Below are positions 4,817 to 61,570 of a stretch of DNA of 64,000 nt, piece after piece; positions within the stretch are counted from its first letter, which is position 1; each line of letters starts with the position of its first letter. The DNA lies in the NCBI GenBank assembly GCA_963716145.1, contig OY970292.1, forward strand, positions 822,528 through 886,527, given 5' to 3'. The notes below the pieces were generated by a model, which was not told the origin of the DNA, searched no databases, and was given only the letters and a program-made list of their open reading frames with translations. The translations under genes and the position numbers were made by a program. The stretch is from Candidatus Levyibacteriota bacterium (GTDB taxonomy: Bacteria > Patescibacteriota > Microgenomatia > Levybacterales > UBA12049).

Positions 4817-5143
4817 TTATTTGCAGCCGCCATTGTTAATGGCTTCAATATTCGTAATACAGTCTGAGGATTTGGTGATAAAGCCGATAAAGTACAAAAT
4901 GGCAAAAGAGGAAAGGACGGTAATAGCGCCGATTATTGCATAGTTCATGATCTTGCGGGCTGCTTCTACTTGCTTGGGATCACCACCTGATGTAACTAGT
5001 CTGATGCCGGAATAAATAATCAGAGAAAGAGCAACAACGCCGACAAATATCAGAAAAGCATTAACGACATTGTGAAAGACAACGGGAAGACAGCGAAGTG
5101 TCGCAACACCATTCTCAACGCAATTTCCCCAAGGTTGAAACAT
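4817..5143 (-). CDS. small two-TM hairpin protein, VirB2/TrbC-like putative T4SS pilin (paralog 1 of 3)
   Basis: 108 aa; two hydrophobic helices separated by loop TSGGDPKQVEAARKIMNYAIIGAI. Same motif as ORFs 50536..50982 and 50998..51321 (SGGDK..ARxxI..AI(I/V)GL). Confidence 0.45.
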   Translation of the reverse strand: MFQPWGNCVENGVATLRCLPVVFHNVVNAFLIFVGVVALSLIIYSGIRLVTSGGDPKQVEAARKIMNYAIIGAITVLSSFAILYFIGFITKSSDCITNIEAINNGGCK

Positions 5144-9538: not shown

Positions 9539-10581
9539 AGTTTGGAAACAAGATTTAGTATCTTAAAATTCCATCCAACCCGATGTGTGTTGCCGGTGCG
9601 ACCCAGGACATTTTTTCTATTTTGTTTATACCACAGGTAGCTTTCCAGGAACAAATCCTGATTGGATTTTTTTGGAGCCCACTTTAGTAATTTTCTGGCT
9701 TTTTCGATTGAAACATAAGAGTCAACAGGCATAGTTTTGTAATGCCAGGCTGCAATTGGCGAGAGGTTAAGCACCTCAAGTATTTGGAGAATAAGTTGAG
9801 AAGGCAGGGTTGGAAGGGAGGTAATTTTTGATTTTGATTTTGCATGTTTTATAACGTGCCCCAAGTCAGATCTCCAAGTCCCAAATCTTTCAGCGCCAAT
9901 ATTAAAGATCTCACCACTTACTCGGGTTGTCAGCGCTTTTTCTATAGCTGACACAACATCTGTGACAGCAAGCAATTGGTATTTATTGTTTCCAGGGCCC
10001 AAAATAAACACCCGTTTATTGTTGAAAATCGCCTCAAACCATAATTCAAAAACTCCAAGCCGCTCAGTTCCCAAAAAAGTCTTCGGACGAATAACGTTTA
10101 CCTGAAGGCCCTTTTTTTGATATTCCATACATAGTTTTTCCCCTTCGATTTTTGAAATTCCGTAATTTCCTATCGGGTCAAGAGGGGCGGTTTCTGTCTC
10201 AGGAAGATGCTTTGGTACGCCGTAAACTGCGGTTGAGGAGATAAAAACAAGACGCTTTACTTTATTTTTAAGCGCTGAGGCTAGAACATTTTTTGTACCT
10301 TCAATATTTACGCTAAATATCACTTTCTTATCAACCTGAATAGGAAGCGCTGCTGCCGCGTGAACTACATAATTTTGGCCGACTAAAGCCTTATCAACTG
10401 TTTTAATATTCCGTATATCACCAATTATAACTTTCACCTTACCAATTAAATCTTTTGCGTCCAAGTCTGCCAAGTCAAAAAGCGTAACATTGTAGTTTTT
10501 CTTGAGAAGAAATCTTGCCAGATGTACTCCCAAAAAACCGGTTCCGCCTGTAATGAGCACCTTTTTTACCATAGAATACAT
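9535..10581 (-). CDS. NAD-dependent epimerase/dehydratase (SDR family; UDP-sugar 4-epimerase-like)
   Basis: 348 aa; N-terminal Rossmann motif VLITGGTGFLGVHL; 4-nt overlap with the upstream GT gene. Confidence 0.8.
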   Translation of the reverse strand: MYSMVKKVLITGGTGFLGVHLARFLLKKNYNVTLFDLADLDAKDLIGKVKVIIGDIRNIKTVDKALVGQNYVVHAAAALPIQVDKKVIFSVNIEGTKNVLASALKNKVKRLVFISSTAVYGVPKHLPETETAPLDPIGNYGISKIEGEKLCMEYQKKGLQVNVIRPKTFLGTERLGVFELWFEAIFNNKRVFILGPGNNKYQLLAVTDVVSAIEKALTTRVSGEIFNIGAERFGTWRSDLGHVIKHAKSKSKITSLPTLPSQLILQILEVLNLSPIAAWHYKTMPVDSYVSIEKARKLLKWAPKKSNQDLFLESYLWYKQNRKNVLGRTGNTHRVGWNFKILNLVSKL

Positions 10582-10590
10582 TCTACTATG

Positions 10591-12285
10591 TCAGCGTGTT
10601 TTTTGAAAGATCATGATTTTTGGGTGATCAAAGACTGTGAAATTCTCATCAGCCGACTGATCGACAAGCGGAGTGTTGAGAATCGGGGTAGTTGGGAAAG
10701 ATGTAAATTCGGCAACTTTTTGGAAACCTAATTCTCCCGAAAATAATTTTTTGTAATAATTCGCTGTTTGCGGGTAGCATCTAAATGTGGGCAAGCGTTG
10801 GCAATCGGTTAATTTTTGAAGAGGCGTATATAGTCTGTTTGAGGCAATAACTATATAGTCGGTTTGAGCAAGCTGGTTATTTATTTCATTCCACTTTTCC
10901 TTTGTGTCAGGGTCGTAAAGTTTTAGAACTTGAGTGTTAAATTTTGGCGGTTGTCCCATTGGAAGCTGATCATCCCAATGCTCAACTGCCAGTGTTTTAT
11001 TTGTCGGAATATTATTGTAGATCCAGTTAGATGCGACAAGTCGTGTGTTGGGTTTTGTGTAAATCCGTATAAAGCTGATTGGCCAGATTAGGCAGGAAGT
11101 AAGAAGTAAGAAGTAAGAAGTAAGAATAATAGGTTTTAATTTGATTTTTTCCATAAATTTATAAACCATTACAGCTGCAAAAAGGGCAAAAAGAGGGTAT
11201 ACAGGAAGCATATAGCGCATAAATCCAACAGCAAATTTCCCAACTATAGAAACGTATATACAGAAAAAAACCAATATAATTAATTCTTTCCCAATTTGGG
11301 AAGACTTTTCTTTTTTGAAGATTAAATAAGTAAAATAAATAAATCCTAAAAACGCAAGTGCTGCAATTAAGGGGCCTAGTCCCCAAAGAAAAATATTTTT
11401 GAACTCATAGACATAAGGGATTTTACCTACAAATTGAAGCGTATACGGAAAGAAAAAAGGATTAATTGTGAGCGCAGATTGTTGAACAGTTTGCTGCCAA
11501 AAAGTGTCAAAATCAATCGCTGCATAAGGTTCCATAAACACAAACGTAAGCAGAGTGGATAGTCCTATTACAAATGCGTATTCCAGCAGATGCCTAATGG
11601 ATTTTGGCAAATGAGGTAGCCAGTGTTTAGGTCTATGCGGATTTTTTAAAAATATCAGAATAAAATCAGAAGTTAGCGCCAGGCCTATTGAAGCTAGCAA
11701 AACGCTTGCGCTTATTTTTGTGGCAAGCGCGAGACCAAAGAATAAGCCTATGACAACTGCGGTTTTAAGAGTGGGTTTTTCATAAAACCTGAGTAGGTTA
11801 TAGAGGGTTGCAAGGATAAAACAGGTTAAAAGTGTATCTACCGCATAGAAATGGGAAAGCTGAATTGGTAGAACGCTAACCGCGTAAAAAAATGCGCTTA
11901 TCAGGCCTACTGAGGAATTAAAAAGTTTACGGGCGATTTTAAAAAGTAGAATAATCGTAATAAGATCTGCAAAAGCAGATAAAACCCTTCCTAAAAGATT
12001 GATATTGCCATATTGTCCAAGAAATGGGTCGAAGACTGCCAGAGTGTTTCCTGTGACCCTTAAGAGGTACATGGGAAAGGATCCATAAGCAAAAAAATGC
12101 GGGTTCCAAGAGCTTTGGGGAGACAAGAATTCGGAAACACTAGTTGGAAATTTCAATTTATCAATTGTTGCGGTAATTGCCCGCTCATCCGGGTGCAAAT
12201 GAAATCCCTGGTCCCAATTAACATTATAAAGCCTAAGAAATGCAGCAAAAATAATAATGATGAATAAAATAATTTTAGTTTTCAT
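10591..12285 (-). CDS. GT-C fold membrane glycosyltransferase, ArnT/PMT-like (paralog A)
   Basis: 564 aa polytopic; first loop LRLYNVNWDQGFHLHPDERAI matches the D/E loop motif of lipid-carrier-dependent GTs; C-terminal soluble domain; (GAAGTAA)x4 in frame. Confidence 0.55.
   Translation of the reverse strand: MKTKIILFIIIIFAAFLRLYNVNWDQGFHLHPDERAITATIDKLKFPTSVSEFLSPQSSWNPHFFAYGSFPMYLLRVTGNTLAVFDPFLGQYGNINLLGRVLSAFADLITIILLFKIARKLFNSSVGLISAFFYAVSVLPIQLSHFYAVDTLLTCFILATLYNLLRFYEKPTLKTAVVIGLFFGLALATKISASVLLASIGLALTSDFILIFLKNPHRPKHWLPHLPKSIRHLLEYAFVIGLSTLLTFVFMEPYAAIDFDTFWQQTVQQSALTINPFFFPYTLQFVGKIPYVYEFKNIFLWGLGPLIAALAFLGFIYFTYLIFKKEKSSQIGKELIILVFFCIYVSIVGKFAVGFMRYMLPVYPLFALFAAVMVYKFMEKIKLKPIILTSYFLLLTSCLIWPISFIRIYTKPNTRLVASNWIYNNIPTNKTLAVEHWDDQLPMGQPPKFNTQVLKLYDPDTKEKWNEINNQLAQTDYIVIASNRLYTPLQKLTDCQRLPTFRCYPQTANYYKKLFSGELGFQKVAEFTSFPTTPILNTPLVDQSADENFTVFDHPKIMIFQKTR
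11096..11123. repeat. (GAAGTAA)x4 heptanucleotide tandem repeat inside CDS 10591..12285
   Basis: ggaagtaagaagtaagaagtaagaagtaagaat; encodes LLTSYFLLLTS on the minus strand. Confidence 0.85.
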
Positions 12286-13886: not shown

Positions 13887-15587
13887 TTAGCGTAGTTTTT
13901 TGAAGATAAATACTGTCGGGCGTTCAAAAACGGAAGCTGTTTCTTCAAAGCTAAAAACAGGATTGCCAAGGTAAGTAATATTGCAAAAAATATCACAAGG
14001 CGTTTCATAGATTTTTTGATAACCTGCTGCTTCCTTGGTTAGCAAAGAATAAAAACCGTAACCTTTTGGAAATTTACTAGCATTTAGCAGCCGGGATCTT
14101 AAAAGTCGCTGGCTGGGAAGAATAATATAGTCGGATTGCGATAGCTTTGTGCTTAATTCTTTGTCCAAAGAAGCTCTTCCAGGATCAAGATCATAAAAAT
14201 TGAAATCATGGATGTTTAAGAGGTGAGAATTAAAAGGTATGATTCCCAGGTCATAAGGTTCAGTTAAAATTGTAGCTGATTGTGCAATATTATTTTGGGA
14301 AAATTTACTTGCCGCTATTCTAGTATCAGGTTGCACAAAAGCGGTTATGAAATAGGACATTGAAAATATTACGCTTGTAAGCGTAAAAATACTTAATACT
14401 AAATACTCGCCTCGCGCCAGCGTCGACGCCAGGCGCGGCGAAGCGGGCTTAATACTAAATACTTTCTTGAAACTCTGCAGAAAGTCTGAAACAAAAATAG
14501 AGACTATTAAATAAACAAAAGGTAGGGTGGGCACCATGTATCGTGTCCATTTCGCATATAGAAATGCCTGGGGGAGGAAAAGAAGTAAGAAGTAAGAAGT
14601 AAGAAGTAAGAATGGCTGATTCTTTGTTTTTATTGCTTTATAAACCAAATAGAAAAAAGCCGGGACCAAAACGGCTGTCAGTACTGGGTTTATGAGAAAG
14701 GGAAGAATATGTAGGAACTGAAAAATAACAGGAGGCGTGTTGTAAAAAGATTGAGTGTAGAAAACCGGCGTTATTCCTGCTACCAAACTTCTTTCATAAA
14801 ATAAGGCAGCTCTGAACTCAGGCGCCAGATAATTTGGTGAGAAAAGAGCTGTTAAAGAAATTAGAAGCAGCATTCCCAATATTGAGTGTTTTGATATTGG
14901 GAGTAAGTTGGATTTTTGTTTTTTTATACTTGTGAGCAATATGGCAACTGGGAAAATTGCTAAAATCAGAAGATTTATCTTGGCTGCAGCCCCTATCGCC
15001 AGAAATAAAATTGAAATGTAGTAATTGATAATTCTTTTTGTTCTCAAAAATCTTAGAATAAAATAAAAAACAGTTATCGCACAAAATGCTCCAAGCCCGT
15101 CATAGGTTCCAAAATGGGCTTGCTGGATCAACCCGGTTGAAAAAACGGAAAGAAATAAAGCAAGTAAAGCCACTTTTTGCGACCAAAACTTTCCGCAAAG
15201 ATAGATTACATAAATGGTAAGTATAGAAAACACAGCAGAAATAGTGCGTAGAATAATTGCAGTTTGTGCGAACGCATCCGTAAGCTTAAATACCTGAAAA
15301 GACAGCAGGAATAGCGGTTTTAGTAAAAGAGTGAGTATTACCGGAAAATTACCGTAGGCAAATGTTCCTTTCAAAAGCGTTTCGGGATTTGCCAAAGATG
15401 ATTTTAGAACAAGGTCCACGATATTCCGCTCATCAGGGTGAAAATAAAAAGGCGAACCCCAATTTAGATTATAAAAACGGAGAAACGCTCCAATCAAAAT
15501 AAGGGATGCTATCAAAAGTTTTACTTTATGTGTTTTTAACAAATGGGACACAATGTTAATTGTAATAGCTTTGGCCACCGTTGACAA
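13887..15587 (-). CDS. GT-C fold membrane glycosyltransferase, ArnT/PMT-like (paralog B)
   Basis: 566 aa; LRFYNLNWGSPFYFHPDERNIV loop motif as in 10591..12285; similar C-terminal end (..IFxKxR); (GAAGTAA)x4 in frame. Confidence 0.55.
   Translation of the reverse strand: MSTVAKAITINIVSHLLKTHKVKLLIASLILIGAFLRFYNLNWGSPFYFHPDERNIVDLVLKSSLANPETLLKGTFAYGNFPVILTLLLKPLFLLSFQVFKLTDAFAQTAIILRTISAVFSILTIYVIYLCGKFWSQKVALLALFLSVFSTGLIQQAHFGTYDGLGAFCAITVFYFILRFLRTKRIINYYISILFLAIGAAAKINLLILAIFPVAILLTSIKKQKSNLLPISKHSILGMLLLISLTALFSPNYLAPEFRAALFYERSLVAGITPVFYTQSFYNTPPVIFQFLHILPFLINPVLTAVLVPAFFYLVYKAIKTKNQPFLLLTSYFLLLFLPQAFLYAKWTRYMVPTLPFVYLIVSIFVSDFLQSFKKVFSIKPASPRLASTLARGEYLVLSIFTLTSVIFSMSYFITAFVQPDTRIAASKFSQNNIAQSATILTEPYDLGIIPFNSHLLNIHDFNFYDLDPGRASLDKELSTKLSQSDYIILPSQRLLRSRLLNASKFPKGYGFYSLLTKEAAGYQKIYETPCDIFCNITYLGNPVFSFEETASVFERPTVFIFKKLR
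14582..14609. repeat. (GAAGTAA)x4 heptanucleotide tandem repeat inside CDS 13887..15587
   Basis: gaagtaagaagtaagaagtaagaagtaagaatgg; encodes LLLTSYFLLL. Confidence 0.85.
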
Positions 15588-15948: not shown

Positions 15949-17235
<1,287 letters not shown>

Positions 17236-20244: not shown

Positions 20245-20476
20245 AGCAAAAATAACGCTGGTTCAGCGGCTACTTTTAGCATAGGCAAATGAGTAAGAAA
20301 TGTAAAGTATTTCTAGATTTATCTAGAAAAGTTTTTTCAAGTATGATATACTTGCTTTAATCTCAAAGCTTAAATCGCAAAGCGCAAAGCTACAGCGGAG
20401 AGTTTAAAGCTTAACAGTTTTGAATTTTGAACTGTAATTTTGAGTTTTGCCTTTTGAATTTTGAGTTTTATTTTAT

Positions 20477-24840: not shown

Positions 24841-24894
24841 TACATTCACTCTCATCGAGAGATGAGATTTATTTTTTTGTATTAATTAACCAAT

Positions 24895-26081
24895 ATGGCA
24901 GACACAAAATTTAACAGAACTAAACCACACGTAAATATCGGAACAATCGGTCACGTTGATCACGGTAAGACCACCACTTCAGCTGCAATTGCAACTGTTC
25001 TCTCCAAAGAAGGCGGATGGCAAAAGCAATGAAGTACGAAGATATTGATAACGCCCCTGAAGAAAAAGCCCGCGGAGTCACCATTAATATTTCCCACCTA
25101 GAATACGAAACAGAAAAACGACACTATGCACATATCGACGCTCCAGGACACGCTGATTATATTAAAAACATGATCACAGGTGCAGCTCAAATGGACGGAG
25201 CAATTCTAGTTGTTTCAGCGCCAGACGGACCTATGCCACAAACCCGTGAGCACATTCTTCTTGCACAACAAGTCGGAGTTCCAGCAATCGTTGTTTTCCT
25301 TAACAAATGTGACATGGTTCAGGATGAAGAGCTTTTGGACTTCGTTGAAATGGAAGTCCGAGAGCTTCTTACAAAATACGAATATCCAGGCGATAAAACT
25401 CCAATTATCCGCGGATCAGCACTTAAAGCACTTGAAGGAGACGCAGAAGCAGAAAAAGCAATCTTAGAGCTTATGGAAACAGTTGATGAATATATCCCAA
25501 CTCCTGAGCGAGCACTGGACAAGCCATTCTTAATGCCTGTTGAGGACGTTTTCTCAATCAAAGGTCGTGGAACAGTTGTTACCGGAAGAATTGAGAGAGG
25601 AATAGTTAAAGTAAACGAAGCTGTTGAGATCGTCGGACTTGATAAGAACAAAGAATCAGTTGTAACCGGAGTTGAAATGTTCAAAAAACAGCTTGATGAT
25701 GGACAAGCAGGAGACAATGTTGGACTTCTTCTCAGAGGTCTTGAAAAAGACAGACGTTGAACGCGGCCAAGTTATTGCAAAACCAGGAACTATTACTCCT
25801 CACACAGAATTTGAAGCAGAAGCATATATCTTAACCAAAGAAGAAGGCGGACGACACACACCATTCTTTACAGGATACCGCCCACAATTTTATATCAGAA
25901 CAACTGATGTTACCGGAACAGCAACACTTCCAACAGGTGTTGAGATGGTTATGCCTGGAGACAAACAAAAATGACAGTAAAACTTATTGTGCCAGTTGCC
26001 CTTGAAGAAGGACTCCGATATGCAATCCGAGAAGGTGGAAAGACAGTCGGAGCAGGAGTAATTACCAAAATAATAAAATAA
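24895..26081 (+). CDS. tuf: translation elongation factor Tu; reading frame broken at at least three positions (about 25015, 25745, 25968), likely sequence errors
   Basis: [27 protein letters not shown]...; frame shifts after VLSKEGG (gga-tgg should be gga atg), before [10 protein letters not shown] and before [35 protein letters not shown]; all three pieces are canonical EF-Tu. Confidence 0.9.
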
Positions 26082-27600: not shown

Positions 27601-28420
27601 GACAAGTTTAAAGTTAAAAGTTAAAAGTTCAAAAGTAGTTAAAAAACCAGCTAAGGCGCCTAAAGTTCTTCTTAAAAAAGAAGCGTTAAAGGTCGTAAAG
27701 TCTGGCGAAGCTAGATCCCGCTCCGCGGGACAAAAGACCGTTTCAAAAACTGTTAAAGCAGAATCTATTAATCTAACAGTCAGCGTTTATGGCTTGGACG
27801 GCAAAGTTAGCGGAAAAGTATCTTTGCCAAAAGAAATTTTTGGAGAGATAGTTAATAAAAAACTTTTGGCACAAGCTGTACGGGTTTACCAAGCAAACAA
27901 AAGACAAGGAAATGCAAATACCAAAACCCGGGGAGAAGTAGACGGATCAACTAGGAAGATTTACAAACAAAAAGGAACGGGAAAAGCACGACACGGCTCG
28001 GTTCGTGCCCCTATATTTGTAAAAGGTGGAATAGTTCATGGCCCAAGAGTTCGTGATTTTGGCCTTGAATTACCCAAAAAAATGAAGAGAAAAGCGCTCT
28101 TTTCCGCCCTTTCGGCAAAATTGCAGGATGGAGAAGTAAAAGTTCTTTCAGGTCTTGAAAAAATTACACCTAAAACTAAACAATTTGCAGCTGTCATAGA
28201 AAAATTAGCATTTGAAGGAAATAATAAAAAATTGCTTTTAGTTGCGCCTGATAATTTTGACAACGCGAAGCGGGCATCGCGCAATCTTACAGGCATAACA
28301 AATACATCGGCTCTTAGGCTGAACGCGCTTGAGGTATTGAGTAGTAAATATCTACTTTTTACAAAAGAAGCAATTATTGAGATGGAGACGTATTTTTTGA
28401 AAAAAGGAGCAACAAAATGA
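27593..28420 (+). CDS. rplD: 50S ribosomal protein L4 with Lys-rich N-terminal extension
   Basis: ATG 27593 after aaggagga; MSKTSLKLKVKSSKVVKK...; core INLTVSVYGLDGK...YKQKGTGKARHGS is typical uL4. Confidence 0.85.
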   Translation: MSKTSLKLKVKSSKVVKKPAKAPKVLLKKEALKVVKSGEARSRSAGQKTVSKTVKAESINLTVSVYGLDGKVSGKVSLPKEIFGEIVNKKLLAQAVRVYQANKRQGNANTKTRGEVDGSTRKIYKQKGTGKARHGSVRAPIFVKGGIVHGPRVRDFGLELPKKMKRKALFSALSAKLQDGEVKVLSGLEKITPKTKQFAAVIEKLAFEGNNKKLLLVAPDNFDNAKRASRNLTGITNTSALRLNALEVLSSKYLLFTKEAIIEMETYFLKKGATK

Positions 28421-30175: not shown

Positions 30176-30240
30176 AAAAGCAGAAAAAGACGATAAAACA
30201 AGAAACAGTATTCGTTAAAACAGATAAGAAGAAAGGAGGG

Positions 30241-30317
30241 GGAAAATAAATTTCAAATATCAAATTTCAAATATCAAATTTCAAATAGATTTGATAGGAA
30301 ATTGGAAATTGGAAATT
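30241..30317. repeat. intergenic tandem repeats upstream of rpsC: (AAATTTCAAATATC)x2.7 and (GGAAATT)x4
   Basis: aaatttcaaatatcaaatttcaaatatcaaatttcaaatag ... ggaaattggaaattggaaattggaaatt, directly before RBS aggagg. Confidence 0.85.
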
Positions 30318-30339
30318 GGAAATTCTCCGAAGGAGGCAT

Positions 30340-30981
30340 ATGGGACAAAAAGTTAATCCACACGTTGTAAGACTTGGTAATGTGTTTAGCTGGGCAAGCC
30401 GATGGTTTGATGAGAGAAAGTACAAAGAAACTTTACTTCAGGATTTTACTCTTCGAAAATGCTGATGAATAAGTTAAGACCGGCAGGTATTGCAAAAGTT
30501 GAAATTGAGCGCTCAATTAACAGTCTGAAAATTATTATTTTTGTCTCACGTCCCGGAATTGTGATAGGCAGAGGCGGATCAGGTCTTGAAGATCTTAAGA
30601 AAAGCATAGTCAAGTTTTTCGCTAAGCAAACCGGTGCAAATATGTCGAAATTGGATATCCGGGTTGAGCCGGTAAAAGACCCGAATCTGGACGCATATCT
30701 TGTAGCGGTAAGTATTTCAGATCAGCTGATCAGAAGACTTCCGTATAAAAGAATTTTGCATCAACAGCCGAGCGTGTGATGAAAGCGGTGCAAAGGGTGT
30801 TAAGATTTTACTGACCGGAAGAATCGGCGGTTCTGAAATTGCGAGACGGGAGAAAATTCATTTCGGTACAGTCCCACTATCAACAATCCGAGAAAATATA
30901 AGTTACGTAAGCTATCCGTCATTAACAAAAAAGGGTTATATCGGGATTAAAGTTTGGATAAATAAACCAGAAGAAAAATAG
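30340..30981 (+). CDS. rpsC: 30S ribosomal protein S3; multiple frame interruptions
   Basis: ATG 30340 after aggagg; [23 protein letters not shown]...; KH-domain and C-terminal [12 protein letters not shown] pieces lie in different frames (ORF 30459..30779 is the middle part). Confidence 0.8.
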
Positions 30982-48850: not shown

Positions 48851-49618
48851 CTACTGGTCCTCAATTCTTCCAATCTCTCTTACTTCTCTGATAGTTTCCT
48901 CGGGCTTGAGTTTGGTTGTATCGATGTTCTCACCTCTATAGAGGAGTAACATACCTTCAATGATTTCCTTGGCCTTTAGGGCATCAGCACGCCAGAGATG
49001 AGATACAAAGACCTTTTTAACCTTGAGCGGATGCGGTCCGTAATCAATGATCAGCTTTGCCATAAAAAGTGCTGTGTGAACCCGCACATCCATAATCTCT
49101 TTAAGCATAATGCTTGTCATGGCTTCCGTAGCAAAGAAACTCTTCAGGGTTATATCCACTTTGTTGGCGTCAATTGTCACGGTGTCGGGGAAAAAGTCAA
49201 AAGGAAAAACAGTTTTGGCTCTGAAAAGTATTTTATCAGCCCGCGATACGAGTATATCGAGCTCTTTTTTAGCTTGCTGTGAATCATCAGTTTCATTGGG
49301 TTCATTTTGTTGGTCACTTTCAGATTTACCGCTATCAGCTTTCTTCTGCTTTTTCTTTGATCCGCCGTCCATACCGCTTCTTTCAGAAGGTGTCATATAG
49401 GGATCTTCAGCTAGCATCTCGGCTCTTTTTGCAAGAGTCTCATCGCTTCGTTTCTCTTTGTAGCCTTTTTTAGTACCATTACCAGATTTTTTATCGGGAG
49501 GGCTGGGAGATTTTCTCCGAGCAGGTTGTTGTCGGCGTTTTGCGCCGTTTTGAAAAATTGGTGCTGCTGCCTCATCAAAAAGTATATTATTATCATTCAT
49601 GACTCCTAAGTATAGCAA
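48851..49618 (-). CDS. hypothetical protein with basic disordered N-terminus and conserved-looking C-terminal domain
   Basis: 255 aa; Lys/Ser-rich N-terminal 120 aa. Confidence 0.45.
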   Translation of the reverse strand: MLYLGVMNDNNILFDEAAAPIFQNGAKRRQQPARRKSPSPPDKKSGNGTKKGYKEKRSDETLAKRAEMLAEDPYMTPSERSGMDGGSKKKQKKADSGKSESDQQNEPNETDDSQQAKKELDILVSRADKILFRAKTVFPFDFFPDTVTIDANKVDITLKSFFATEAMTSIMLKEIMDVRVHTALFMAKLIIDYGPHPLKVKKVFVSHLWRADALKAKEIIEGMLLLYRGENIDTTKLKPEETIREVREIGRIEDQ

Positions 49619-49699: not shown

Positions 49700-50524
49700 C
49701 TAATTTAAAATATAAAGATCCTGGTTATATCCGCCAACTGCCACAAATTCCGCTTCATGAGTGATAATGGCCTCAAAGGGAAGGCAGGCAAAGCAGCCGC
49801 CCTTTGGACAGATGTATTCTCCAGCAAGCCTTGCCTGTTTTACTCTTAAGGCAGTTTCCAGGACTGTTTGAAAAGCAAGATCTTTATCAGGTAGTTTCAT
49901 CTCAGTGGGTGTATCATCCCGGTCCAAATACCAATAGCTGGCTTTACTGACCAATCTGCTCTGGCAATTTTCAACCAGAAGTAAATAAATAGGAAGTTGG
50001 AGGGAATTGACCTTTTCATCATTTTTACCTGTTTTGAAATCGATTATGTGAAGAGTATTATCAGGCATATACTCAAGCCAGTCAATCTTACCGCAAAGTA
50101 TTATATTATCCGCTACAGATAAATAATAATTTGGCAGTTCTTTATTGATTTTAATAGCTTTTTGAATTAGTGGGCCAGGGTTATCAATAACCCGCTTTAA
50201 CATTTGTACGCCCCGTTCTTTTATTGCATGCTCTTCCTCTTTGTTCTTAAAACCTCCAAGTTTGCCGGTTACTTTTTCCCAAGATAAGTTATATTTATCA
50301 ACAAGCGGCTCTTTAAAGCGGTCCTCAACCCGTAGAGTAGATAATGCTTCAAGCACAACGTGCACTGTTTGTCCAAGAGCAAGCGAGGGATTTATGATAT
50401 TCACTTTGTGTCCCGTTTGCGGGTCTTTGTAAACATTTCTAAGGTAATAAAGCCTCGGACAAGAAAGAAAATCACTGATGGATGAGTTAGATACCCAGAC
50501 CGCGCTATATTTATCTTGGGGCAT
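49700..50524 (-). CDS. Cas4/RecB-like PD-(D/E)xK nuclease with Cys4 Fe-S motif (stand-alone)
   Basis: 274 aa; GKIDWLEY...HIIDFKTGK (D...D/ExK); one N-terminal Cys (DFLSCPRLYY) plus CPKGGCFAC at the C-terminus, as in Cas4/AddB Fe-S nucleases. Confidence 0.6.
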   Translation of the reverse strand: MPQDKYSAVWVSNSSISDFLSCPRLYYLRNVYKDPQTGHKVNIINPSLALGQTVHVVLEALSTLRVEDRFKEPLVDKYNLSWEKVTGKLGGFKNKEEEHAIKERGVQMLKRVIDNPGPLIQKAIKINKELPNYYLSVADNIILCGKIDWLEYMPDNTLHIIDFKTGKNDEKVNSLQLPIYLLLVENCQSRLVSKASYWYLDRDDTPTEMKLPDKDLAFQTVLETALRVKQARLAGEYICPKGGCFACLPFEAIITHEAEFVAVGGYNQDLYILN

Positions 50525-50535
50525 AAAAGCGGGGT

Positions 50536-50982
50536 TTAACTGCCAAAAGTAGGTATTTTTAGGCTACGAATATCCCCTAGGCCAAATGCGCTTAGGACAA
50601 TTTGTACTATGAAGTAAGCAACAAAGGCGACAATGAGACCCACAATGGCTGCAACGATATGCTTTCTCGCTTCATCAACTTTTCCTTTGTCTCCACCGGA
50701 GGTTATCCATCTGATTCCACCATAAACTAGGTAAAAAAGAGCGATGATAACTGCCGCGATCAGAAGAAATGTTAATACAGTGCCTATGATGCCACCTGCT
50801 TTATCTGCTTTGAAGTTGTCGCAGAGTTTGAAAAAAGTTGAACTCCGAGGGCAGGGATCAAGATCTGTCTCTGCAAACGCAGGAAGAGCTGAGTAGGCGA
50901 AAGCACTAAGTCCTAATAATATTGCTGAAACCTTTTTCATAAGTACATATCTATGATAGAACAATGTTTTTCTGCTTGTCAA
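50536..50982 (-). CDS. VirB2/TrbC-like two-TM pilin-like protein (paralog 2)
   Basis: 148 aa; signal-like N-terminus; YGGIRWITSGGDKGKVDEARKHIVAAIVGLIVAFVAYFIV. Confidence 0.45.
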   Translation of the reverse strand: MTSRKTLFYHRYVLMKKVSAILLGLSAFAYSALPAFAETDLDPCPRSSTFFKLCDNFKADKAGGIIGTVLTFLLIAAVIIALFYLVYGGIRWITSGGDKGKVDEARKHIVAAIVGLIVAFVAYFIVQIVLSAFGLGDIRSLKIPTFGS

Positions 50983-50997
50983 TATAGCAAAATATAA

Positions 50998-51321
50998 TTA
51001 AGCAAAATTTAGAAGGTTTACCTTGAAGAAATAGCCAATAAGGCTAACAATGAAAAACGCAGCAAACGCGACAACAAGCCCAATTATTGCCCAGGTCAAT
51101 TTTGCACGAGCTGCTTGAAGCTTTGTTTTATCTCCGCCTGATAGAATCCATTGTATGCCGGCAACTACTATAAATATAAGCGCCAAAGCTACGCAGATTA
51201 TGATCATGATGATAAAGCTATTGCGGAAAACCTTACTTACTGTACCAATGCCTCCGGTTGGGATACCAGGAGGGGCAGAGATTGTTTGTCCGCCGGGAAG
51301 AGTTAATGCCAAATAGTTCAT
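50998..51321 (-). CDS. VirB2/TrbC-like two-TM pilin-like protein (paralog 3)
   Basis: 107 aa; AGIQWILSGGDKTKLQAARAKLTWAIIGLVVAFAAFFIV. Confidence 0.45.
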   Translation of the reverse strand: MNYLALTLPGGQTISAPPGIPTGGIGTVSKVFRNSFIIMIIICVALALIFIVVAGIQWILSGGDKTKLQAARAKLTWAIIGLVVAFAAFFIVSLIGYFFKVNLLNFA

Positions 51322-56215: not shown

Positions 56216-58084
56216 CTATGATTTGGGTTTTGCGCCATTTTTATTTCTTCGTCTTTGCCTAAAGGGTACTCTTTCACCTCTTTCTTTCCGAATTGCTTCC
56301 CTTTCCGCCTCAATGGTTTTTTCGAATCCGCCCTCCCCATGTACTGTTCCTTGTCTCTCAATAAGTCTTCTTGATGCCAGACCTCTCTCAGCCATAGAAC
56401 CGAGAATAGGCACGCGGGATCCGGCTCCGATTATCTTTTCACCGGTTTTACGTTTCAAAACAGCAAGAGCTCCCTTGTCACCGCTTCTCGCGTCATATCT
56501 ATTTAGATGCTTCATTGCACGCCCCACCGGTGCGCCAACTACCGCAGCTCCAGCGGCAATTCCAGCTCCAACAATTCCCGGAGTGCCGATATTTTTGACA
56601 CCCATTTTCTCACGTAGAATGGTCTGGATAGTCGGGGCAATCAGAAGCACTCCAAATGCCATAAGCGCTCCGAAATTGGTGCTTGATGGATTTCCCACAA
56701 GGGGAGGTACGAATTGATTGGGAGATGCCGTACTATATATATCCAAAAGCAAACGCGCGGCAATTAAAAGAAACACTGTTAGAGGAAAAATGGCAATATT
56801 GACAAAAAGCCTTCTGATCCAGCTTTCAAAACCCATAGGTTTGGTTGGAAGCAGCCCAAAAACAATAATAATAGGCGCCAATATTACATAGGCCAGAGTA
56901 TAGATATATGCTTTAAGGAGATTAAACCAGATTTTGAATAGATTTATAACCAAAATTACGAAAATGATAATTTGCGCGACAGCGCTGACGAGAACAGCAA
57001 GGAAATTGGCAACGCCTTTTTTGGCGCATTTTATGGGATGATACCACTTGCATTTTGTTTCCAGATCATTTTCATCAAACATCAAACTTCTTGCTACATT
57101 GCCGATAGTGTTTCCCGCGCTGTCGGCAACTGATTTGGTCATGACATGAAATCCGCCGTCGCGATCATTACCTTCACCAATAGATAAAAATCCTGTTTCC
57201 TCGCTGCACCTGGCAAAAATTTGATTAAAATAAGTAATAGGAGTCTGAAGAATTGTGCTGGTTGCTTTTTCTGAAAGCTTTTCCGGCCCGGCAGTTTTAT
57301 CTGTACAGTTGCCTACATCCGGGTCATGAGTGGCAGTAAGTAAGTAGGATCCTGCATAAGTAGTCACCCACATCAGGTCAATAAGCATAGCCGAAATCGC
57401 GTAAGAGAGAGTAATAAGTATTATCGAAACTATTACTTTGGGAATTTGATTCTGAATAGTCATGACTGTCCTGGGGTCAATTTTTATCCTTAGCATGATA
57501 CCAACGCCAATAAATACAAACGCAAGAGTCAGAAGAACATAGGCGATATTGCGCACAGTTTCCCAGAGTCCGATAATCGGCTGGAGGCCGCACAATCCGT
57601 AGCCTGATTTAGCAGGATCACAAGGCGCTACCGCGGCATAAGCTTTGGGGACAATGCCGAATTTATCTGAGATATACCGCGTATACGTTCCTGTTGATGC
57701 AATCGGCTGATAGGTTGAGGTGATCAGACCGGTTGAAATACCCACAAGTCCCCCAATTTCCGGCTTGCCATACTCATCGAGTACAGGTTTACTCATCCCT
57801 AGTCTTTTGGTCTCAGGATTGATGCCAAGACAGCCTTGAGTCGGGTTGATCGGATCAACCCCGATTAGTAGACAATGTATAGCTGATAAAACTTCAATTG
57901 TTGTTGACTGGGCAAAAGTGTGTTGATTGAGGGGAACATCCGGATCCATATTTGGAGCCGCGAAAGAATTGGTTGTCGTAGTAGCCGAAGTGGGGGATAT
58001 TTGAGCAAATGAGGGCTTGGAAGCCATAAATAACAACCCAACAATAACAAATAACAAACAGAATAAAACGCGGACAGAGCGCAT
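56216..58084 (-). CDS. VirB6/TrbL-like polytopic membrane protein with signal peptide and long basic C-terminal tail
   Basis: 622 aa; MRSVRVLFCLLFVIVGLLFMASKPSFA signal; about 8 TM helices in the middle; hydrophilic Arg/Lys/Gly-rich C-terminal 110 aa. Confidence 0.4.
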   Translation of the reverse strand: MRSVRVLFCLLFVIVGLLFMASKPSFAQISPTSATTTTNSFAAPNMDPDVPLNQHTFAQSTTIEVLSAIHCLLIGVDPINPTQGCLGINPETKRLGMSKPVLDEYGKPEIGGLVGISTGLITSTYQPIASTGTYTRYISDKFGIVPKAYAAVAPCDPAKSGYGLCGLQPIIGLWETVRNIAYVLLTLAFVFIGVGIMLRIKIDPRTVMTIQNQIPKVIVSIILITLSYAISAMLIDLMWVTTYAGSYLLTATHDPDVGNCTDKTAGPEKLSEKATSTILQTPITYFNQIFARCSEETGFLSIGEGNDRDGGFHVMTKSVADSAGNTIGNVARSLMFDENDLETKCKWYHPIKCAKKGVANFLAVLVSAVAQIIIFVILVINLFKIWFNLLKAYIYTLAYVILAPIIIVFGLLPTKPMGFESWIRRLFVNIAIFPLTVFLLIAARLLLDIYSTASPNQFVPPLVGNPSSTNFGALMAFGVLLIAPTIQTILREKMGVKNIGTPGIVGAGIAAGAAVVGAPVGRAMKHLNRYDARSGDKGALAVLKRKTGEKIIGAGSRVPILGSMAERGLASRRLIERQGTVHGEGGFEKTIEAEREAIRKERGERVPFRQRRRNKNGAKPKS

Positions 58085-58150
58085 AGCTATTTTAGTTTGA
58101 GGTATTTTGAATGGGTTGTCAAGTTCTGCAAAGCAGAATTTTAAGCCTTG

Positions 58151-58235
58151 CGGAGAGGACGGGACTCGAACCCGTAATCCCGTTTCCGGGACACGCGCTT
58201 TCCAAGCGCGCCGACTACCATTATCACACCTCTCC
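58151..58235 (-). tRNA. tRNA-Ser (anticodon GGA), type II with long variable arm
   Basis: acceptor GGAGAGG/CCTCTCC, anticodon arm CGCGC-TTGGAAA-GCGCG, variable hairpin CCCGGAAACGGG, T-arm ACGGG-TTCGAGT-CCCGT, discriminator G. Confidence 0.85.
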
Positions 58236-58459
58236 TTTTTTTAATCTAAATTTCTTCTAAAATATTTTCTCCCACGCGCACTCTTGTCCGCCTCTGGCGG
58301 AAGACCACCCCGCCAAAGGCGGGCAGGTATGCGACCCTTCCATTTCAAAACTATTATATAAGGTAAATGTCAAGCGATTTAGCTCGAAATTTCCTATACT
58401 TGTCTGGTAATTATACCTGATTAGTTTCATATTTGCATAAAAGGGAGGGAGGATATAAA

Positions 58460-59314
58460 ATGACAGAGAACGATTATATTATGGACCCATTACCACCAGA
58501 TAGACCGGGATCTAGACCAGGAGATCCCCGAGCGCCACGTGAAGCCGGGCCTCCGATAGTACCTAGGCCTACCCAAGATCCGAAAGAGGCAGCAGATCAT
58601 CCTCTTGGTCCAGCTATTCCCTCACCGTCCAGAAAGGAAGGTGTAGGTGATGAAACCGTGGAGGCCTGGACAAAAGGCGCAACCTCGCGCAGCAGAATGA
58701 GTCCATCAGAAACTGTCGAGAAAGTATTGCCCGCACGTGGACTGGATTTGCCAACTGGCGAAAGAGGACAAGAAGATGCTGCCCGCGACTTGGAACTAAC
58801 GACGAGGGTAGTAAATGAAAACATTAGTATTCCTGAGATGGCTGCTATTGCTAATGAATTTGGAATTCCAAGGAATATGGTGTCGCACGAATTTGCGCAG
58901 ATGGGTGTTAAGCCGGAGAAAATCGAGGAACTTATGCAGCATCAGCATCTGCTGCTGCCCGAATTAACAGAGGCCGAAAAAGTAAACGTCTCTGATCCTG
59001 TCACCGAAGAGGTAATACAAGCCGGAAAGACAAACGCAGAAAAGGAATTGGAAGCTGGAATTTTTGAAGATGTAAAGAAAAGGTTTGAGACCGAAGCTGA
59101 ACCTCAGGAGGGTGACTTAGAAAAGATAGCCACAGTAAGAAAGGGATTTAATAAGTTTTTATTTGACGAGAATGAGGGTATTTTAAGAAGAGAGGGACGA
59201 AAAGCAAGACTTTTTGGAAAACCGCTGGTGGTTGGATTAATGGCCACATTTCTTGCCTATCTTTCGCTTTTGAGTCTTATGACAAAGTGGGCGGCCAAAA
59301 GAGTAGGAAGTTAG
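58460..59314 (+). CDS. hypothetical tail-anchored protein, Pro/Arg/Glu-rich N-terminus, C-terminal TM
   Basis: ATG 58460 after gggagggagg; C-terminus GKPLVVGLMATFLAYLSLLSLM; G+C higher than host. Confidence 0.45.
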   Translation: MTENDYIMDPLPPDRPGSRPGDPRAPREAGPPIVPRPTQDPKEAADHPLGPAIPSPSRKEGVGDETVEAWTKGATSRSRMSPSETVEKVLPARGLDLPTGERGQEDAARDLELTTRVVNENISIPEMAAIANEFGIPRNMVSHEFAQMGVKPEKIEELMQHQHLLLPELTEAEKVNVSDPVTEEVIQAGKTNAEKELEAGIFEDVKKRFETEAEPQEGDLEKIATVRKGFNKFLFDENEGILRREGRKARLFGKPLVVGLMATFLAYLSLLSLMTKWAAKRVGS

Positions 59315-59386
59315 TGTCCCCGGCGGGAATCGAACCCACAACTGAAGCTTCGGAAGCTCCTGTTTTATCCGTTAGACTACGAGGAC
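59315..59386 (-). tRNA. tRNA-Arg (anticodon CCG)
   Basis: acceptor GTCCTCG/CGGGGAC (one G-U), anticodon arm GGAGC-TTCCGAA-GCTTC, T-arm GTGGG-TTCGATT-CCCGC, discriminator A. Confidence 0.75.
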
Positions 59387-59503
59387 TCTTCTGCTCCGGC
59401 TGCGTAAATTGCTCTGCAACATTTTCAGGCGAAACGTAAGAAATTTCTCAAGAAATTTCAACGTTTCTGCAACGTTGAAATCGCAAAGCGATTTCTTACG
59501 TTG

Positions 59504-59587
59504 CGGAGGGTACAGGATTCGAACCTGTGTAGGGATTACTCCCTCGAGTTTTCGAAACTCGTGCAATTGCCACTATGCGAACCCTCC
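59504..59587 (-). tRNA. tRNA-Ser (anticodon CGA), type II
   Basis: acceptor GGAGGGT/ACCCTCC, anticodon arm CGAGT-TTCGAAA-ACTCG, variable hairpin AGGGAGTAATCCCT, T-arm ACAGG-TTCGAAT-CCTGT, discriminator G. Confidence 0.85.
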
Positions 59588-59692
59588 TTGTTCGCCAGTT
59601 GGCGAACACAATGAACTAAGAACAAAGAACTTAGAAAACTTTCTATTCTTGGTTTTAAGTTCTTAGTCCTTAGTATTCTGCTTTGCAGAATG

Positions 59693-59766
59693 TGTTCCCG
59701 AGTGGATTCGAACCACCGGCCTTAACGTCCGCAACGTTACGCTCTATCCAGCTGAGCTACGGGAAC
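59693..59766 (-). tRNA. tRNA-Arg (anticodon GCG)
   Basis: acceptor GTTCCCG/CGGGAAC perfect, D-arm GCTC-AGCTGGATA-GAGC, anticodon arm TAACG-TTGCGGA-CGTTA, T-loop TTCGAAT, discriminator A. Confidence 0.8.
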
Positions 59767-59816
59767 ATGTGTGTATTTTACCTAATATGGTCTAGGCTTG
59801 CAATTAAAATGAAATT

Positions 59817-60392
59817 TTACCGGCTTGTCTTTTCAAGAGGAAAGTTTTTTGAGAGCCAATCTCCTGATTTTTCCGTAAAAGTGGGCTTAACATATTCACG
59901 GTAAGGAAGGTACGGTAGAAGAATTGGTTTTATCTCCTCAGCCGTAATATCTCCAAGTGAAATCTTTAATTCTCCGGGAAAATAACTCTTGGTAGTCAAA
60001 TACAATACATCTTTATCATGATGTTTTATAAAGAAAAAATCATACAATTCTTCCCAGATAAAAAAATAATCTTCAACCCGTATGCCCTCCGTCGTAATTT
60101 TGTAGTAAAAATCATGAGGTGGGACAATTGATAAAGCAAACCACAGAAAAACCAATGAGAATATAGCACCCATTAAAAAAAAGTCTTTAGATGCAATATA
60201 AACTATGATTTCAAGTGCTGCCATTATCAGGAATCCGTTGAAAAAATACTCACGTGAGTGTTCTTTGAAAGGCCTACCGGGGGCGTGCCATTCTAAAAAA
60301 GTTCTGACATCATGTGTAAAGGCCGGGTTTTGTTCTCTTTCTTCTGGTTTTGGCTTATGTTTTGGGGTAGTCACACTTTTAATGTAACTCAT
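59817..60392 (-). CDS. membrane protein with two TM helices and a bacterial PH (bPH_2/DUF304)-like C-terminal domain
   Basis: start moved to ATG 60392 (MSYIKSV...) because the track ORF (to 60542) would overlap tRNA-Ser(TGA). Confidence 0.4.
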   Translation of the reverse strand: MSYIKSVTTPKHKPKPEEREQNPAFTHDVRTFLEWHAPGRPFKEHSREYFFNGFLIMAALEIIVYIASKDFFLMGAIFSLVFLWFALSIVPPHDFYYKITTEGIRVEDYFFIWEELYDFFFIKHHDKDVLYLTTKSYFPGELKISLGDITAEEIKPILLPYLPYREYVKPTFTEKSGDWLSKNFPLEKTSR

Positions 60393-60435
60393 TTTCAAGA
60401 CAAAAGTCAAGAAATTTGCTATACTTGAGCCTCCT

Positions 60436-60522
60436 GGAGAGGTCGCATAGTGGTCTAGTGCGGATGTCTTGAAAACATCTGTGGGCGCAAGTCTACCGCG
60501 AGTTCGAATCTCGCCCTCTCCG
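60436..60522 (+). tRNA. tRNA-Ser (anticodon TGA), type II
   Basis: acceptor GGAGAGG/CCTCTCC, anticodon arm GATGT-CTTGAAA-ACATC, long variable arm, T-arm GCGAG-TTCGAAT-CTCGC, discriminator G. Confidence 0.85.
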
Positions 60523-60544
60523 CAACGTAAGAAATCTACCAAAT

Positions 60545-61570
60545 ATGATAATTCGTCCCATAACTTCTTCTGAAAAAAAACAGTTCAATGCTGTGGTAGG
60601 TCATCCGCTTCAATCTTATGAATGGGGGGAGTTCCGGGAGAAAACAGGGGTAAAAGTGATTAGGCAAGGTTTTTTCACTAAGGAAAATATGACTTCAGGT
60701 TTTCAGCTAACTATTCATCCCATTCCGCATTCTCCTTTTACAATCGGATATTTACCCAAAGGTGAGTTGCCGGGCAAAGAGCTATTGAAAGAGTTGAAAA
60801 AAATCGGCAAAGAAGAAAAATGTATTTTTATCCAACTCGAGCCAAATGTTATTGCTTCGCAAATTTCAAATTTCAAATTTCAAATTTCAAATTTAGAGCT
60901 TCGGCAGGCCGCGCATCCGCTTTTTACAAAATATAATTTTGTTTTGGATATTACCAAATCCGAAGACGAGCTCCTCAAAAATATGCATCAAAAAGCCAGG
61001 TACAATATAAAAGTTGCGCAAAAAAACGGAGTCGCGGTAGTTGAAGATAATTCGAAAAAAGCCTTCGAGGCATACTTGAAATTAACCCATGAAACAACAG
61101 AAAGACAGAAATTTTATGCGCACACAGAAGAGTATCACAAGAAAATGTGGGGAGCGCTTCAAGGTCAGAATTTGGACAAAAATAAACTAAGTGCACATTT
61201 ATTAACGGCAAAATATAAAGGAAAGATTTTAACTGCTTGGATTTTGTTTGTCTTTAAAGACACGCTTTACTATCCTTACGGTGCGTCAAGTAGTGAAAAC
61301 CGTGAAGTAATGAGCAGTAATCTGATGATGTGGGAAGCGATACGGTTTGGCAAAAAATTGGGACTTAAAAAATTTGATATGTGGGGAGCGTTGGGTCCAA
61401 ATCCTGATAAAAATGATCCATGGTATGGATTTCACAGTTTTAAGCAAAAATACGGACCTGAACACGTTGAGTACATGGGGAGTTTCGATTTGATAGTAAA
61501 TCCAGTTTCGTATAAGTTCTACAAGATAGCGGACAAACTTCGTTGGCTCATGTTAAGATTAAAGAAGTGA
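60545..61570 (+). CDS. FemAB-family aminoacyltransferase (peptidoglycan interpeptide-bridge formation)
   Basis: 341 aa; N-terminal HPLQSYEWGEFRE (FemABX QSWEW-like) and GNAT-like C-terminal half; (CAAATTT)x5 in frame at 60860-60894. Confidence 0.65.
   Translation: MIIRPITSSEKKQFNAVVGHPLQSYEWGEFREKTGVKVIRQGFFTKENMTSGFQLTIHPIPHSPFTIGYLPKGELPGKELLKELKKIGKEEKCIFIQLEPNVIASQISNFKFQISNLELRQAAHPLFTKYNFVLDITKSEDELLKNMHQKARYNIKVAQKNGVAVVEDNSKKAFEAYLKLTHETTERQKFYAHTEEYHKKMWGALQGQNLDKNKLSAHLLTAKYKGKILTAWILFVFKDTLYYPYGASSSENREVMSSNLMMWEAIRFGKKLGLKKFDMWGALGPNPDKNDPWYGFHSFKQKYGPEHVEYMGSFDLIVNPVSYKFYKIADKLRWLMLRLKK
60860..60894. repeat. (CAAATTT)x5 heptanucleotide tandem repeat inside the FemAB-family CDS
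   Basis: caaatttcaaatttcaaatttcaaatttcaaattt; encodes SQISNFKFQISNL. Confidence 0.85.

Follow-up and report, generated by a model that had tools for sequence, protein, structure and literature searches.

A stand-alone Cas4-like nuclease of a Levybacteria-type genome, best explained as a core chromosomal gene of Patescibacteria

What does a Cas4-like nuclease do when it stands alone in a bacterial chromosome, with no CRISPR system around it? The question is raised by a stretch of 64,000 nucleotides from a Candidatus Levyibacteriota bacterium (GenBank assembly GCA_963716145.1, contig OY970292.1, positions 822,528 to 886,527 of the forward strand; hereafter the window), in which a single gene at 49700..50524 encodes a protein of 274 amino acids. 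An original prediction, made from the letters alone, had described this gene as a stand-alone Cas4-like Fe-S nuclease without a CRISPR array or other cas genes nearby, and had pointed to phages, mobile elements and defence islands as places where such solo genes occur. The best explanation of the data presented here is that it is a core, vertically inherited, single-copy chromosomal gene of Patescibacteria, also called the Candidate Phyla Radiation (CPR), in a host of Levybacteria type.

The open reading frame (ORF) and the three peptides quoted in the original prediction (GKIDWLEY, IIDFKTGK and CPKGGCFAC) are all present, and their occurrence is far beyond chance. Residues 11-233 matched the Pfam family PDDEXK_1 (PF12705) over positions 2-225 of the 247 in the model; the score of 67.7 bits (E = 1.9e-18) exceeds the cut-off of 22, and homologue searches returned 6,702 homologous clusters at 90% identity. 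An identical protein is on record, carried by a 1.14-Mb contig. The ORF aligned end to end and without gaps to dozens of homologues, and we therefore regard it as intact despite an indel-prone assembly; no second copy was found within the 64-kb window. Conservation was assessed in two alignments, one of 27 close homologues (63-81% identity) and a wider one of 31 homologues reaching down to 24% identity. The gene and its motifs are listed below; ACE1, to which two of the motifs were aligned, is an Argonaute-associated enzyme of the Cas4 family.

49700..50524, minus strand: nuclease gene, stand-alone PD-(D/E)XK (PF12705-type, Cas4-like), 274 aa, ATG start, stop codon included
50459..50461, minus strand: codon of C22, the N-terminal cysteine of the 1+3 set (FLSCPRLYY), invariant in both alignments
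50348..50362, minus strand: motif I region, H55-E59 (GQTVHVVLE), both residues invariant in the close alignment, H55 at >=90% in the wider one
50069..50092, minus strand: motif II, GKIDWLEY, residues 145-152, with catalytic D148, invariant in both alignments and aligned with the ACE1 core (HMMER)
50024..50047, minus strand: motif III, IIDFKTGK, residues 160-167, with catalytic D162-x-K164, invariant in both alignments and aligned to "hIvDfKTGk" of ACE1
49985..49999, minus strand: motif IV, Q176-xxx-Y180 (QLPIY), the Q/Y motif of the RecB family, invariant in both alignments
49784..49810, minus strand: C-terminal triad C239-x4-C244-x2-C247 (CPKGGCFAC, residues 239-247), all three cysteines invariant in the close alignment

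The predicted D...D/ExK core and 1+3 cysteine arrangement are thus borne out by D148 and D162-x-K164 on the one hand and by C22, C239, C244 and C247 on the other, every one of them invariant among close homologues. Within the triad, C247 is also invariant in the wider alignment and C244 is conserved at >=90%, with a spacer of 4 to 7 residues to the first cysteine; further conserved positions there are F92 (invariant) and W82, G91 and E98 (>=90%). A fifth cysteine, C144, was considered as an extra cluster ligand and rejected because it varies across the wider family, invariant as it is in close homologues. The one N-terminal and three C-terminal conserved cysteines of iron-staple nucleases are present, with a spacing that departs from the canonical pattern: the triad reads C-x4-C-x2-C in the window protein and C-x4-7-C-x2-C in the wider family, as against C-x2-C-x5-C in Cas4 (SSO0001) and AddB. 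Neither a signal peptide nor a membrane segment was evident in the sequence.

Is the protein then a Cas4? Two curated Cas4 models were matched only partially, over the core, and below their thresholds (PF01930, 16.0 versus 22.7 bits; TIGR00372, 33.5 versus 65). PADLOC likewise gave partial matches, of 35 bits for Cas4 and 34 bits for Argonaute-associated Cas4-like nucleases, and the AddB and RecB models matched over 30-50 residues only. An AlphaFold2 model (predicted local distance difference test score, 91.1) was ranked against solved structures, where ACE1 (9IAB) came first with a score of 15.8, closely followed by the nuclease domains of AdnA (15.5) and Dna2 (15.4). Lower scores were obtained for the four-cysteine exonuclease 3L0A (13.5), RecE (12.5), the CRISPR Cas4 structures (10.5-12.2) and AddB (7.9). 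Foldseek agreed with this ranking, with template modelling (TM) scores of 0.62-0.64 for ACE1 and 0.56 for AdnA. ACE1 was also the sole solved protein reached by sequence search, and weakly so (9IAB and 9IAC; E 0.004-0.009, 14-17% identity). Because the protein falls below both curated Cas4 thresholds and its fold lies nearer ACE1, AdnA and Dna2 than CRISPR Cas4, it is Cas4-like in the broad sense and not Cas4 proper.

As to its molecular identity, we are confident that it is a stand-alone, metal-dependent iron-staple PD-(D/E)XK nuclease. A match to some PD-(D/E)XK family without the Fe-S cluster would have refuted the core of the original prediction; no such match emerged, and the core stands. 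What has to be given up is membership of Cas4 proper, and the Fe-S cluster itself is best called predicted.

Several characterized systems share parts of this design. Cas4 and solo-Cas4 proteins (PF01930, TIGR00372; e.g., SSO0001, PDB 4IC1) have in common with it the superfamily, the catalytic motifs and the logic of the 1+3 cysteines. In the AdnAB/AddAB helicase-nucleases (PDB 9NP6, 6PPR and 3U44), the nuclease domain is of the same iron-staple class, but the AddB, AdnA and RecB subunits fuse it to superfamily 1 helicase or helicase-like domains, whereas the window protein consists of the nuclease domain only. Dna2 (PDB 5EAN; 15% identity) is a eukaryotic or archaeal multidomain helicase-nuclease, unlike the window protein, which lacks a helicase domain. 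ACE1 is an Fe4S4-containing endonuclease of single-stranded DNA (ssDNA) with a D-DxK site in a narrow channel, as in AdnA, and has been reported from cyanobacteria only (PMC12094033). It is encoded beside a long-A prokaryotic Argonaute (pAgo), with which it forms a heterodimer; the window gene, by contrast, has no Argonaute nearby, belongs to a CPR host and behaves as a core gene. Given the weak sequence similarity and the patescibacterial host, the window protein lies outside the ACE1 clade.

The closest precedent is a class of stand-alone genes. Solo-Cas4 has been described as over-represented in small-genome CPR and DPANN organisms, mostly vertically inherited and evolving like ordinary cellular genes, and the Cas4-like proteins that best match pfam12705, which likewise stand alone outside CRISPR loci, are not CRISPR associated (Hudaiberdiev et al. 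2017, PMC5704561). The present family fits that class, as it is stand-alone in 82 of 82 loci, its named hosts are Patescibacteria and its sequence identity tracks relatedness. Homologues are annotated at NCBI as "PD-(D/E)XK nuclease family protein" or "RecB family exonuclease" and, for some, at JGI as "Cas4 (RecB family)"; the family has no dedicated model of its own.

How widely and how faithfully is the gene kept? At 50% identity the 6,702 clusters reduce to some 60 strong ones, which makes the family a large yet tight one. Carriers were found in at least 496 species (GTDB contigs, one genome per species), including complete chromosomes of 0.8-1.6 Mb, and the best 80 carriers are 54-81% identical to the window nuclease. 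CP011214, CP055307, OY970314, OY970230 and OZ246394 are among the complete chromosomes with the gene. Informative host names are Levy-, Woese-, Gottesman-, Shapiro-, Dojka-, Magasanik- and Taylorbacteria, Paceibacterota, Saccharibacteria and "Patescibacteria group", with Levybacteria as the nearest named relatives of the window. Among loci L009-L087, many metagenome-assembled genomes (MAGs) with the gene at 55-72% identity are labeled "uncultured Gammaproteobacteria", "Pseudomonadales", "Lysobacterales", "Sulfotelmatobacter" or "Weeksellaceae". Several of the MAGs with Gammaproteobacteria or Pseudomonadales labels come from one submitter series, and the non-CPR labels probably reflect wrong taxonomy or mis-binned contigs.

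The window nuclease shares 81% and 79% identity with its counterparts in the two closest genomes. The adjacent ribosomal proteins of the same two genomes stand at 88 and 81% (S9), 88 and 76% (L13) and 69% (L17), and the other non-ribosomal neighbours at 33-76%. The nuclease is therefore the slowest-evolving non-translation gene in its neighbourhood, changing at about the pace of a ribosomal protein. Strong purifying selection, a single copy and a vertical-looking distribution are what these comparisons establish.

This conservation belongs to the gene and not to its surroundings. When 1,422 ORFs from the 82 loci were clustered all against all, no neighbour family was found in more than 11 loci. 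The 143 immediate flanking genes of 80 loci fell into 138 Pfam families, of which the commonest, FKBP_C, occurred five times; threonyl-tRNA synthetase, BipA, IF3, an acetyl-CoA-synthetase-like ligase and a P-type ATPase are examples. Repair genes lie occasionally near orthologues (LigD_N, AlkZ-like, methyladenine glycosylase and RecA). The place beside the ribosomal operon is syntenic in relatives, and this synteny extends only to close ones.

Some relatives carry additional features. In L024, a MAG labeled Saccharibacteria, a Pif1-like helicase with an HTH_40 domain (8323-9978) lies directly upstream of the nuclease orthologue and co-directional with it, across a gap of about 22 bp; PIF1-matching flanking genes number three over all loci, each upstream of the nuclease gene and on its strand, and L034 and L040 have similar upstream genes of comparable size. 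The adjacency recalls the eukaryotic pairing of Pif1 with Dna2. The next-closest larger proteins are UvrD-helicase/PDDEXK_1 fusions, and P0236, P0254 and P0257, of 770-1,300 aa, carry 3-5 tandem PDDEXK_1 domains. Five distant members of the wider alignment (P0151, P0155, P0175, P0191 and P0270) end in an acidic "...D-L-P-F", like the tail of the bacterial ssDNA-binding protein (SSB; DDDIPF), which could mark an interaction with SSB-binding partners. The window nuclease ends in QDLYILN and has no acidic tail.

Taken together, we favour, with moderate confidence, the reading that the gene encodes a housekeeping iron-staple nuclease of ssDNA ends or flaps that would serve recombination, repair or replication without a fused helicase. 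In the proposed mechanism, C22 together with C239, C244 and C247 would be the ligands of a metal cluster, most likely 4Fe-4S, by which both ends of the fold are stapled together; we speak of a predicted cluster since the same four cysteines carry 4Fe-4S, 2Fe-2S or Zn, depending on the relative. D148, D162 and K164, probably E59, and the Q176/Y180 motif would form a Mg2+/Mn2+ active site. The analogy of ACE1, AdnA and Dna2 suggests that ssDNA ends or 5' flaps thread into a narrow active-site channel and are cut there. The cellular job would be end or flap processing in recombinational repair, in replication or in the handling of incoming (transforming) DNA, and the enzyme would act without a fused helicase, possibly with one encoded elsewhere. 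This cellular role, taken by itself and argued from analogy, we hold to be about evenly balanced.

A number of points weigh against that assignment. The four-cysteine site could hold 2Fe-2S or Zn, for which Pcal_0546 and 3L0A are precedents. Since the gene has no consistent link to a helicase or recombination partner, the case for "repair" is built on conservation and analogy only. For one Saccharibacterium (Southlakia), the published annotation tables show a UvrD-PF12705 fusion and no stand-alone copy; its transposon sequencing (Tn-seq) tables likewise list the fusion and no PF12705 gene of the stand-alone kind. The stand-alone relatives that have been characterized, ACE1 and the solo-Cas4 of Synechococcus, act in defence (PMC12094033). 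Solo-Cas4 of Methanosarcina mazei prefers supercoiled double-stranded DNA, and the substrate proposed here is drawn from analogy. Literature searches returned no biochemical or genetic work on the nuclease family and nothing CPR-specific on the status of RecBCD/AddAB.

A broader version can be entertained tentatively: the enzyme would be a core, possibly essential end or flap nuclease of the whole Patescibacteria radiation, helicase-free and Dna2/AdnA-like, that replaces or complements RecBCD/AddAB or links DNA uptake to recombination or nucleotide salvage. The features cited for it are the re-ordered cysteine motif C-x4-7-C-x2-C and the invariant W82, GGF at 90-92 and E98. If true, this would define a minimal bacterial resection system.

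Could the nuclease instead belong to innate defence? It would then degrade invading plasmid or phage DNA, or make small DNA guides for an Argonaute elsewhere in the genome. The suggestion draws on the rank of ACE1 as the best match among solved proteins in both structure and sequence, on the partial PADLOC matches given above and on the contribution of ACE1 and the cyanobacterial solo-Cas4 to interference with foreign DNA (PMC12094033). Solo-Cas4 also adjoins restriction-modification genes in some DPANN archaea, and at one related locus the adjacent gene encodes a type I methylase. The neighbourhood speaks otherwise. PIWI, PAZ and MID domains were absent from the window neighbours in Pfam scans, so the locus does not form an Argonaute operon, and no Argonaute family was found among the flanking genes of the 80 loci. 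PADLOC gave no significant match to a defence family among the window neighbours, with one marginal hit (E 0.0045), and defence families were rare among the 143 flanking genes, amounting to sporadic methylases and, as the commonest matches, the three Pif1/RecD-like helicases. The sequence similarity to ACE1 is itself marginal (E 0.004 at best) and that enzyme has been reported from cyanobacteria alone. Genes engaged in an arms race are not typically as conserved as ribosomal proteins, nor do they typically lack viral copies. We consider a role in defence unlikely.

A further possibility concerns the envelope. The genes immediately beside the nuclease, and the ribosomal-protein operon of the window, are as follows.

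50536..50982, minus strand: T4SS_pilin (PF18895), upstream and co-directional, Pfam E 8.5e-10, stop 11 nt before the nuclease start
50998..51321, minus strand: second T4SS_pilin, upstream, Pfam E 1.1e-8; context, not a conserved partner
48851..49618, minus strand: 255-aa ORF, downstream and co-directional, 81 nt past the nuclease stop, no Pfam or PHROG match
26.5-43.8 kb: ribosomal-protein operon with SecY, Adk, Map, RpoA, L17, L13 and S9

With only 11 nt between the pilin stop and the nuclease start, co-transcription of the two genes is likely, in the window lineage only. The product might accordingly be a component of a type IV secretion system (T4SS), a pilus or a DNA-uptake apparatus that processes DNA crossing the envelope or degrades imported DNA for nucleotide salvage. 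Besides the two pilins, a TrbL/VirB6-like gene and large uncharacterized proteins lie near the nuclease; VirB4-like and PrgI-like genes and a further pilin gene occur in the window; and the three nearest relatives preserve the arrangement. Nucleotide synthesis is lacking in CPR bacteria, for which DNA uptake has been proposed as a route to salvage, and in Southlakia the T4SS is essential and has no relaxase (PMC10633639). The adjacency does not hold beyond this lineage, however. An iterated pilin hidden Markov model (HMM) detected it in 4 of 82 loci, none of them below 71% identity, with the two-pilin arrangement kept only in the window and its three nearest relatives (L004, L008 and L029); at the other loci the orthologue is just as conserved but sits among unrelated genes. 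Neither a signal peptide nor a membrane segment speaks for export, and a chance adjacency is plausible because T4SS_pilin genes are numerous in the window (three). We regard a dedicated part in secretion or uptake as improbable.

Homologues of the 255-aa downstream ORF occur in 4-5 of the 82 loci, and the opposite strand beside the nuclease carries a winged-helix (Trans_reg_C) regulator and large proteins without assigned family. A sigma-70-like site at 50982-50953 matches at 11 of 12 positions, in a background where promoter- and terminator-like sites are no commoner than in shuffled sequence.

A true CRISPR adaptation Cas4, with cas1/cas2 and an array elsewhere in the genome, is largely refuted and has very little probability left. 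The RecB-type motifs, the 1+3 cysteines, some of the JGI labels and the weak partial matches to Cas4 models speak for it; the shortfall against both curated cut-offs, the rank of Cas4 structures below ACE1, AdnA, Dna2 and RecE, and the reported lack of CRISPR-Cas association of Pfam12705-type Cas4-like proteins (PMC5704561) speak against it. In addition, the absence of CRISPR repeats and cas genes from the 64 kb, as originally predicted, held up in every search. Pfam scans of all non-ribosomal ORFs found no cas gene; Tandem Repeats Finder (TRF) gave only short 7- to 21-bp repeats and none that was CRISPR-like; a search for direct repeats of >=22 nt within 120 nt returned one trivial pair; and Rfam found no CRISPR-DR family in the window, only five tRNAs. 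Cas1 and Cas2 were absent from the listed top families of flanking genes in the 80 loci.

Least probable of all, and largely refuted, is cargo of a prophage, plasmid or other mobile genetic element (MGE-Cas4), for which a remote match to the phage exonuclease family phrog_69 (54 bits), the frequency of Cas4-like nucleases in phages and a distant homologue with a GIY-YIG insertion can be cited, against no match in 50,697 GenBank phage records, no close homologue in IMG/VR (two remote matches, 29% identity) or in the PLSDB plasmids (one remote match, 24% identity), no integrase or phage genes near the nuclease, no PHROG matches among its neighbours, a position by the ribosomal operon that is syntenic in relatives, and an unremarkable GC content. 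In that homologue, P0127 (53% identical), a GIY-YIG domain overlaps the central part of the nuclease domain and may be a homing-endonuclease insertion. The setting in a phage, mobile element or defence island to which the original prediction had pointed is thus not borne out: only about 6 kb separate the gene from the ribosomal-protein operon's end, the flanking genes in related loci are of mixed housekeeping kinds, close viral or plasmid homologues were not found, and the protein evolves at a ribosomal-protein-like rate.

The window as a whole is ordinary chromosome, as judged from Pfam, tRNA and Rfam scans and from translations. The ribosomal block was identified from translations only, the Pfam scans having covered the non-ribosomal ORFs. 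Other genes include EF-G, EF-Tu, membrane glycosyltransferase-like proteins, FemAB, a signal peptidase and five tRNA genes. The latter form a cluster at 58150-60523 (Ser-GGA, Arg-CCG, Ser-CGA, Arg-GCG and Ser-TGA), where mechanical ORF calls overlap some of the tRNA genes, e.g., at 59817-60542. Parts of a CPR-type T4SS are scattered over 561-2708, 3444-4757, 4817-5143, 50536-51321 and 56216-58084, and comprise a VirB4/TraG-like P-loop ATPase, a PrgI-family protein and the three T4SS_pilin genes. Also counted among these parts is a protein of 622 aa; its homologue in L004 has a weak TrbL match. Beside these parts lie proteins of 1,051 and 1,071 aa without assigned family and a 477-aa protein with a C-terminal winged helix (Trans_reg_C).

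Several genes of the window are broken. EF-Tu (about 24860-26000) is in four pieces across two reading frames, which implies at least three frameshifts, and L2 (28873-29488) and S3 (about 30180-30779) also look split. As these are essential genes, indel errors in the assembly, perhaps from long reads, most likely account for the breaks, and caution is therefore due with other short or broken ORFs in the window.

The window also holds tandem repeats with a 7-bp unit. Perfect tracts lie at 5740-5764, 11096-11126, 14580-14612, 16519-16555, 30297-30324 and 60860-60894, and imperfect ones at 5687-5722, 20418-20469, 27604-27636 and 30248-30287, with units AATTTGA/CAAATTT, GAAGTAA, ATTTTCC and GGAAATT in 3.6-5.3 copies. 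Exact repeats of period 5-6 or 8-11 were absent from the window. Related CPR loci contain six exact tracts in 1.21 Mb, as many as the window has in 64 kb, and there too period 7 is almost the sole period. Five of the six in the window lie inside ORFs, for envelope-related enzymes (DUF2298, PMT_2 glycosyltransferase-like and FemAB) and an amine-oxidase-like enzyme. Since a change in copy number would shift the reading frame, the tracts could be phase-variable contingency loci.

Solo Cas4-like genes have been known in CPR since 2017, and the window nuclease is an uncharacterized member of that kind. What is added here is its placement nearest ACE1, AdnA and Dna2, the altered cysteine spacing, conservation at the level of ribosomal proteins and the quantified absence of a conserved partner. 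The locus itself is ordinary, a chromosomal gene of housekeeping type; what is modestly interesting is the core nuclease found across the CPR. Annotation pipelines mislead when they label such genes "Cas4" or "helicase/DNase subunit B".

The CPR, or Patescibacteria, possibly make up a quarter or more of bacterial diversity, with tiny genomes and a DNA maintenance that is sparse and poorly understood. Because the nuclease is kept by at least 496 carrier genomes, at 54-81% identity among the best 80, and without fixed neighbours, it is likely to be central to CPR cells. It would bear on how DNA ends are processed in minimal bacteria, or on how foreign DNA is met where there is no CRISPR.

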